A stretch of DNA of 64,000 bases from assembly GCF_058153355.1 (NCBI RefSeq), contig NZ_CM177019.1; one strand, 5' to 3'. Of the stretch, positions 21,801 to 22,073 are shown in pieces. The first letter of the stretch is position 1. Each line of letters starts with the position of its first letter. A model generated the notes under the pieces. It saw only the letters and a program-made list of their open reading frames with translations. It had not been told where the DNA came from and searched no databases. The position numbers were made by a program, and so were the translations under genes.

Positions 21801-22073
21801 GTGAGTCGAGCATTGTTCGCCCTAGCATTGGCATTTCCATTCATTGCACTGGCTAACCCGCATTATCGTCCGGACGTGGAGGTGAACGTACCGCCAGAAG
21901 TGTTCAGTTCAGGCGGGCAGTCAGCGCAGCCCTGTACTCAGTGCTGCGTTTATCAGGATAAAAATTATTCTGAAGGGGCGGTAATTAAAGCCGAAGGAAT
22001 ACTCCTGCAATGCCAGCGGGATGACAAAACCCTTAGCACTAATCCGCTGGTCTGGCGGCGCGTAAAGCCATAA
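21801..22073 (+). CDS. ynjH: DUF1496 secreted protein YnjH
   Basis: 90 aa with signal peptide MSRALFALALAFPFIALA; synteny. Confidence 0.75.
   Translation: MSRALFALALAFPFIALANPHYRPDVEVNVPPEVFSSGGQSAQPCTQCCVYQDKNYSEGAVIKAEGILLQCQRDDKTLSTNPLVWRRVKP

Follow-up and report, generated by a model that had tools for sequence, protein, structure and literature searches.

Where two convergent genes end inside one another, it has to be asked whether the shared stretch is an error of annotation, a regulatory device, the cover of a hidden element, or simply the result of two coding tails growing into each other. The window considered here, that is, the whole stretch of 64,000 nucleotides that was analysed, raises this question twice. 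It is an E. coli chromosomal segment, reversed in orientation relative to K-12, with the gene order topB, gdhA, ynjH, nudG, ynjF … xthA … spy, ves, cho, nadE. A sequence-only reading had reported coding overlaps between ynjH and nudG and between ves and cho, and had taken them to imply antisense transcription across the 3' ends with possible mutual interference. The evidence assembled below shows both to be genuine convergent overlaps at junctions that have neither spacer nor terminator, and makes it quite probable that they were formed by tail extension and are neutral or a by-product of genome compaction.

Overlap Coordinates and Reality of the Genes

In both pairs the genes lie on opposite strands and each stop codon falls within the open reading frame (ORF) of the partner, which defines a convergent (3'-3') coding overlap. 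The positions of the features are collected in Table 1. The overlap coordinates and gene names of the sequence-only reading were found to be exact by the ORF listing, by direct reading, and by the K-12 MG1655 and PGAP annotations. In K-12 MG1655, nudG (1841490-1841897) and ynjH (1841863-1842135) share the identical overlap, as do cho (1823515-1824402) and ves (1824362-1824937), and the PGAP annotation of near-identical strains also contains both. The two loci were found in 5414 and 5421 of 5426 complete E. coli genomes. Both coding overlaps are already known from the reference annotation, and the transcript overlaps appear in a published catalogue; the phase (123:132) was derived here from the sequence for both. 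At the first junction, one strand encodes the YnjH end ...TNPLVWRRVKP-stop and the other the NudG end ...MALRAARPAD-stop.

Table 1. Positions of the genes, overlaps, and associated elements at the two convergent junctions of the window
Feature	Position	Strand	Description
σ28 (FliA)-type promoter of ynjH	21739-21766	+	TAAAGTTT (21739-21746), N12, ACCGTTAT (21759-21766)
ynjH CDS	21801-22073	+	90 aa, DUF1496, GTG start; stop TAA 22071-22073
Back-up in-frame nudG stop	22033-22035	-	TAA, 6 nt beyond TAG; used where TAG is lost, giving a 41-nt overlap
ynjH/nudG coding overlap	22039-22073	both	35 nt, phase 123:132, read directly from the sequence
nudG CDS	22446-22039	-	135 aa, Nudix pyrimidine (d)NTP pyrophosphohydrolase; stop TAG ('cta' 22039-22041 on + strand)
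σ28 (FliA) promoter of ves	38918-38945	+	AACGTAAATCACCCGAGTTGCCGATAAC; -10 GCCGATAA at 38937-38944
ves CDS	38998-39573	+	191 aa, HutD family; stop TAA
Two RNase III-cut dsRNAs inside ves	39411-39431, 39123-39144		102-410 nt past cho stop; PMC7373196, available part of Table S3
GC-rich hairpin, 11 bp	39487-39513	- (cho-sense)	20 nt past cho stop, inside ves ORF
ves/cho coding overlap	39533-39573	both	41 nt, phase 123:132; two lineage-specific C-terminal tails
cho CDS	40420-39533	-	295 aa, UvrC-like excinuclease, GTG start; stop TGA
RNase III-cut 21-bp dsRNA inside cho	39740-39760		167-187 nt past ves stop; PMC7373196, available part of Table S3
Probable LexA (SOS) box of cho	40434-40453	-	CACTGGATAGATAACCAGCA

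An annotation artefact would mean that one gene of each pair ends earlier or is no gene at all. What could be said for it comes from protein length and domain extent. Orthologs in other genera are shorter (NudG 130-133 aa, Ves 182-185 aa, Cho 287-292 aa), and the overlapped tails lie outside the conserved Pfam or NCBIfam cores in three of the four proteins: the NUDIX domain covers NudG residues 4-125 of 135 (Pfam), HutD covers Ves 9-175 of 191 (Pfam), and the NCBIfam Cho equivalog aligns residues 1-287 of 295. The YnjH tail is the one inside its domain, Pfam DUF1496 spanning residues 33-89 of 90. Against this, each of the four genes has a family match, the NCBIfam equivalog covers NudG 1-135, structure 2RRK includes its full 135 aa, and orthologs of all four genes are intact in frame across many genera. 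Stop codons, unlike start codons, leave annotation no choice; the stops here are unambiguous and agree with curated K-12, and since no earlier in-frame stop exists in E. coli, the overlaps are physical facts. All four are real protein-coding genes, so neither overlap is an artefact, a reading that is effectively refuted and retains next to no probability. Comparison of ortholog stops, proposed in the sequence-only reading as the check, does yield shorter C-termini, confined to other genera; the long Escherichia forms are conserved. Such differences between genera are the route by which the overlaps arose, not evidence that they are unreal.

Codon-Level Origin of the ynjH/nudG Overlap

Orthologs were surveyed by an xthA-centred scan of species-representative genomes with 10-kb flanks, using tblastn and extending each ortholog to its stop. 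Because xthA lies midway between the two overlaps, a single scan captured both loci in many Enterobacterales. ynjH and nudG are convergent in about 55 Enterobacterales species, and they overlap in all 32 Enterobacteriaceae species sampled, by 35 nt (n = 13), 41 nt (n = 15), 44 nt (n = 2), or 26 nt (n = 2). In Erwinia, Pantoea, Yersinia, Serratia, Hafnia, Rahnella, and Edwardsiella the two genes mostly share 23, 12, or 8 nt or are separated by a gap of 1-105 nt; one Yersinia has a 35-nt overlap outside the Enterobacteriaceae.

The C-terminus of YnjH (…LQCQRD.KT.STNPLVWRRVKP-stop) is fixed among orthologs. NudG is conserved as far as LAPADIPLLEAF, beyond which both its length and its sequence vary, and the E. 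coli tail RAARPAD-stop is the reverse complement of the YnjH codons for NPLVWRRV. Variation within the overlap is found at ynjH third positions, with summed column entropies of 3.4, 2.5, and 10.2 at codon positions 1, 2, and 3. The TAG stop of nudG is complementary to three bases of ynjH, namely, the last two of the YnjH Thr codon and the first of the Asn codon. Consequently, it exists exactly when Thr is written ACT, and among the orthologs it is present exactly where YnjH is encoded with ACT-AAY. With ACC, ACG, or ACA at this codon, nudG instead reads Trp, Ser, or Leu, respectively, and runs on to the back-up stop listed in Table 1.

A comparison of pairwise identities indicates which partner is constrained. 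Among taxa with the overlap, the NudG tail reaches 0.56 against 0.67 for the core, whereas in taxa without a substantial ynjH overlap the tail falls to 0.14 against 0.55. The NudG tail is thus conserved only where it overlaps ynjH, from which it follows that the constraint lies on YnjH, with the NudG tail hitch-hiking. Independent selection as the main cause of the tail's conservation was rejected, the tail being unconserved wherever the ynjH overlap is missing. The codon-level mechanism of the toggle between 35 and 41 nt and the evidence for hitch-hiking of the NudG tail are what the present analysis adds. The pair is a worked example of a conserved C-terminus that dictates the sequence of its neighbour's tail and even the position of its stop, and it illustrates that a protein tail may look conserved through hitch-hiking alone. 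In overlapping taxa the last 11 residues of YnjH are more conserved than the preceding 29 (0.84 vs 0.70). This, together with the persistence of the overlap across the family, may point to dual constraint or to a selected arrangement.

Evolution of the ves/cho Overlap and Chance Expectation

The second pair overlaps in 17 of the 18 cases sampled, and the extent differs between genera: 45 nt in Pluralibacter, 41 nt in Escherichia and Citrobacter, 24 nt in Siccibacter, 23 nt in Enterobacter and Lelliottia, 15 nt in Superficieibacter, 7 nt in Phytobacter, and 4 nt (TTAA) in Kosakonia and one other; one Enterobacter has a 28-nt gap. Ves is 182, 185, or 191 aa long and Cho 287-295 aa, and both tails are lineage-specific extensions past the conserved domains.

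The length to be expected by chance was estimated with a null model in which, for 50 long ORFs of the window, the distance that a convergent frame reads in before meeting a stop was determined. In the phase found here the median read-in is 48 nt, and the probability of at least 35 nt is 0.62. The window contains about ten convergent junctions, of which two overlap and two others are separated by only 3 and 8 nt. Length, phase, and frequency of the overlaps are as chance would give them. In E. coli, 58 convergent overlaps between coding sequences have been described, with stop-codon mutation as their usual origin (Lillo & Krakauer 2007, PMC2174442), and (123:132) is the commonest phase among convergent overlaps of at least 5 nt, at 49% (PMC2174442). 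Tight convergent junctions without a terminator are common in this region. The 8-nt gap separates ynjF(+) from ynjE(-) (23153-23162), a pair that is also in the published excludome, and the 3-nt gap lies between ydjO and tcyP (N96 annotation).

Antisense Transcription and Double-Stranded RNA

The coding overlap itself requires the transcripts of the two partners to overlap. The antisense transcription that the sequence-only reading had predicted is borne out by the published excludome and by strand-specific sense and antisense counts (PMC12288877, PMC7373196). ExcludonFinder (Sanmartin et al. 2025, NAR, PMC12288877) lists cho-ves, nudG-ynjH, and ynjE-ynjF in its Table 1, within a set of 165 convergent excludons present in at least 50% of 58 MG1655 RNA-seq sets. 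In the available part of Table S1c of Huang et al. 2020 (PMC7373196), sense/antisense values in RPM for wild type, rnc-14, and rnc-38 are 9.0/45.4, 3.8/29.2, and 5.6/17.0 for nudG; 80/2.7, 79/0.9, and 27/2.5 for ynjH; 7.9/19.2, 6.4/22.0, and 5.7/34.6 for cho; and 157/4.7, 173/1.8, and 245/8.6 for ves. These values stem from single libraries per strain, in a strain background that differs from that of the window.

Calculated per nucleotide from these values, antisense RNA across nudG amounts to about 38% of the ynjH density, antisense RNA across ynjH to about 45% of the nudG sense density, and antisense RNA across ves is about equal to the cho sense density. It follows that polymerases read through from both sides and that the transcript overlap spans whole genes; the expected overlap of transcripts is therefore real but not limited to 35-41 nt, as RNA runs for hundreds of nucleotides through the partner. 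The relationship is also not the mutual one that had been supposed. It is strongly asymmetric, the published RPM of ynjH and ves in that part of the table exceeding those of nudG and cho 9- to 20-fold. Because the σ28-driven partners dominate, antisense exceeds sense 5-fold for nudG and 2.4-fold for cho, which places both among the 12 of about 149 rows counted in Table S1c in which antisense is above sense.

These data bear on a reading in which both pairs are selected regulatory excludons: σ28-driven ynjH and ves would switch off nudG and cho, and SOS-induced cho would switch off ves, by colliding polymerases and by RNase III cutting the sense-antisense duplexes, thereby coupling motility to DNA-damage handling. 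Besides the excess of antisense RNA, it can draw on membership in the excludome, since ExcludonFinder reports for this class of gene pairs a raised synteny and an expression in single cells that is mutually exclusive (PMC12288877), and on the convergent layout of ynjH and nudG, which is kept across Enterobacterales. Duplexes are also found: the available part of Table S3 of PMC7373196 contains RNase III-cut double-stranded RNAs (dsRNAs) of 21-22 bp in both cho and ves (Table 1), and p19-captured dsRNA per nucleotide in the exponential-phase sample is about four times higher for nudG than for its neighbouring genes. The nudG p19 RPM is moderately raised, and among the Table S3 rows listed there is no discrete ynjH/nudG duplex. 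The p19 validation of dsRNA was, however, not feasible for convergent excludons (PMC12288877). Sense RNA in the values cited above does not rise in either rnc mutant, going from 9.0 to 3.8 and 5.6 for nudG and from 7.9 to 6.4 and 5.7 for cho. This counts against action through RNase III, though it says nothing against polymerase collision. The length of the overlap drifts with synonymous changes and gives way to gaps in distant relatives, which likewise does not favour a selected device.

Promoters

The asymmetry between the partners has its counterpart in their promoters. By ChIP-seq, the promoters of ynjH and ves are FliA (σ28) targets (PMC4183435), and RNA-seq values for wild type vs ΔfliA are 18 vs 0 for ves and 29 vs 2 for ynjH (PMC4183435); published data show ynjH to be FliA-dependent in Salmonella as well. 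The σ28 motif is kept upstream of ynjH in Escherichia, Citrobacter, Enterobacter, Lelliottia, and Kosakonia. The motif upstream of ves in the window is verbatim the FliA motif printed for this gene in PMC4183435 Table 2, and its …GCTGCCGATAA element is kept in about 20 genera or species. Fitzgerald 2014 Table 2 prints for ynjH a motif from the other strand (reverse complement of 21762-21789); unlike it, the cross-genus conserved σ28 motif points towards ynjH. On the other side of the second junction, a probable LexA box precedes cho, which we take to be the known SOS box of this gene from the work of Fernandez de Henestrosa 2000. LexA regulation of cho (ydjQ) through a known SOS box is documented (PMC6590174 Table 1). 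A reported σ54 site near nudG proved irrelevant, as it lies inside ynjE, 1.3 kb away.

Promoters kept across genera on one side and LexA control of cho on the other would suit regulatory excludons. A tie between the ves σ28 promoter and cho was nevertheless rejected: it is retained by Citrobacter and Enterobacter species that have no adjacent cho and in which a hairpin follows the ves stop. Moreover, a ynjH knockout shows no motility phenotype (PMC4183435). Taken with the transcript data, selected regulatory excludons appear unlikely.

Terminators and RNA Structure at the Junctions

It might also be that what is conserved in the overlap regions is a hidden element acting as RNA or DNA, for instance a hairpin for processing or an intrinsic terminator that works in both directions. 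Scans with terminator consensus patterns gave none at ynjH/nudG and matches at chance level at ves/cho, Rfam had no match at either overlap, and Term-seq in K-12 places no 3' end at the stop codon of any of the four genes (PMC7815308). Near ves/cho, the only ends in the Term-seq data are that of the spy terminator, upstream of ves, and Rho-dependent ones close to the beginning of cho (PMC7815308). When 141-nt segments from both strands of each junction were folded, the ynjH/nudG folds were not significant (z = -0.45 and +0.40), and at ves/cho the ves-sense strand gave z = -1.5 and the cho-sense strand z = -3.2.

The last value is due to the 11-bp hairpin of Table 1, on which the case for a hidden element depends. 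Three pairs that are G-U on the cho-sense strand become C-A mismatches on the other. Across four Escherichia, its energy is -20 to -24 kcal/mol cho-sense vs -9.5 to -18 kcal/mol ves-sense, and in the window it is followed by UGUGUUUG. Against this, the K-12 U-tract is poor (UGUGCCUG). Deep conservation or covariation was rejected by per-species folding, which found the hairpin in Escherichia only and lost in Citrobacter and others. In the K-12 values above, ves antisense density is about equal to cho sense density, and dsRNAs occur beyond the hairpin, which suggests that it is not an efficient terminator. The sole significant structure thus being confined to one genus and evidently leaky, a conserved element hidden in the overlaps was rejected as highly improbable.

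Two further structures were observed. In three Citrobacter and two Enterobacter species in which cho does not abut ves (survey loci L013, L015, L016, L019, and L050), a GC-rich hairpin directly follows the ves stop; it is terminator-like or REP-like, and the overlap-bearing species have none. At the other junction, the ynjH stop is bracketed by a perfect 9-bp inverted repeat, ATCCGCTGG (22042-22050) and CCAGCGGAT (22104-22112), which results from the use of CCGCTGG for Pro-Leu by both genes, each on its own strand; the fold that it supports is not significant (z = -0.45).

Neighbouring Features

Several other features of the window lie close to the two junctions. A complete group II intron occupies 17800-20106 on the minus strand, with Rfam matches to domain V/VI at 17800-17876 and to D1-D4 at 19959-20106 and a 580-aa RT-maturase-HNH ORF at 17881-19623. 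The intron lies within a convergent gap between topB (ending at 17779) and gdhA (ending at 20222); in K-12 this gap carries ynjI, and in strain N96 it is only 83 nt long. Between the end of nadE and the cho promoter with its LexA box, Rfam matches the ES036 (CssrF) sRNA at 40528-40570 on the minus strand, with 42.9 bits vs a gathering score of 37.6.

The order ynjH(+), nudG(-), ynjF(+), seen at 22447-23153 together with nudG, is that of a noncontiguous operon, in which an opposite-strand gene lies between same-strand genes. As antisense RNA across nudG amounts to about 38% of the ynjH density, ynjH transcripts may reach ynjF. For the recoded genome Syn57, the preprint describes 174 refactorings in which overlapping genes with target codons were duplicated, 98% of them kept in the viable strain; because the nudG TAG lies inside ynjH, ynjH/nudG is presumably among them, although neither pair is named in the preprint.

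Interpretation of the Overlaps

The account that we consider best supported, namely, genuine convergent overlaps from tail extension, is as follows. Weakly constrained C-terminal tails were extended into the neighbour by stop-codon drift. The NudG tail reads the YnjH antisense strand until a stop is met, a synonymous ynjH Thr codon setting 35 vs 41 nt. RNA polymerase arriving from each side runs on through the partner gene, as the published data show. The coding overlap itself would be neutral, or a by-product of compaction, and not a device under selection. If the σ28 transcripts damp nudG or cho at all, they would do so mainly through polymerase collision, and the effect would be modest at most.

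Several considerations count against neutrality. The persistence of the ynjH/nudG overlap across a whole bacterial family could speak for selection, and the synteny and single-cell expression reported for excludons as a class also count here. A neutral origin also leaves as coincidence that the dominant partners share a σ factor and that both covered partners serve DNA-damage avoidance, nudG being an oxidised-nucleotide sanitiser and cho an SOS excinuclease. This pattern of shared σ28 control and DNA protection, which is added here, is post hoc and is weakened by the retention of the ves promoter where cho is not adjacent. In its strongest form it would mean that FliA-driven antisense RNA lowers nudG and cho in motile cells and that ynjH, the anti-nudG RNA, and ynjF form an unrecognised σ28 noncontiguous operon, which we regard as a long shot. 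As a discovery the overlaps matter little; should the pairing of σ28-dominant with DNA-protecting genes not be a coincidence, it would link motility to mutation avoidance.

Comparison with Known Systems

Four classes of known arrangement are relevant for comparison. Bidirectional intrinsic terminators between convergent genes are said to have been described by Ju et al. 2019. The junctions studied here share with them the convergent orientation and the meeting of transcripts from both sides; unlike them, they have no intergenic hairpin with a U-tract and are read through in both directions. Noncontiguous operons, reportedly described by Sáenz-Lahoya et al. 2019, share with ynjH-nudG-ynjF the layout and the crossing of nudG by ynjH transcription as antisense RNA. 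The same-strand genes of such operons are co-transcribed, as ynjH and ynjF may be; ynjH-nudG-ynjF is not among the three E. coli noncontiguous operons listed in PMC12288877.

With convergent excludons (the Sesto 2013 concept; PMC12288877), both pairs have in common neighbouring convergent genes with overlapping transcripts, and ves/cho also has RNase III-cut duplexes. The class is defined by mutual exclusion, which is putative in ynjH/nudG and ves/cho; these are placed there by transcript overlap. Unlike excludons that overlap only in their 3' UTRs, they overlap in their coding regions too.

The closest likeness is to the known convergent overlapping gene pairs (Rogozin 2002; PMC2174442; Pallejà 2008, PMC2478687). 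Both loci share with these the location on opposite strands, the stop inside the partner's ORF, the phase 123:132, a length below 60 nt, tails extended beyond the conserved domains, and an overlap kept in related genomes. Conservation of convergent overlaps is usually restricted to very close species (Pallejà et al., PMC2478687). Nothing essential sets ynjH/nudG apart from the class, and its conservation is family-wide and deeper than that of most members. Both loci are ordinary members of the convergent overlapping gene pairs.
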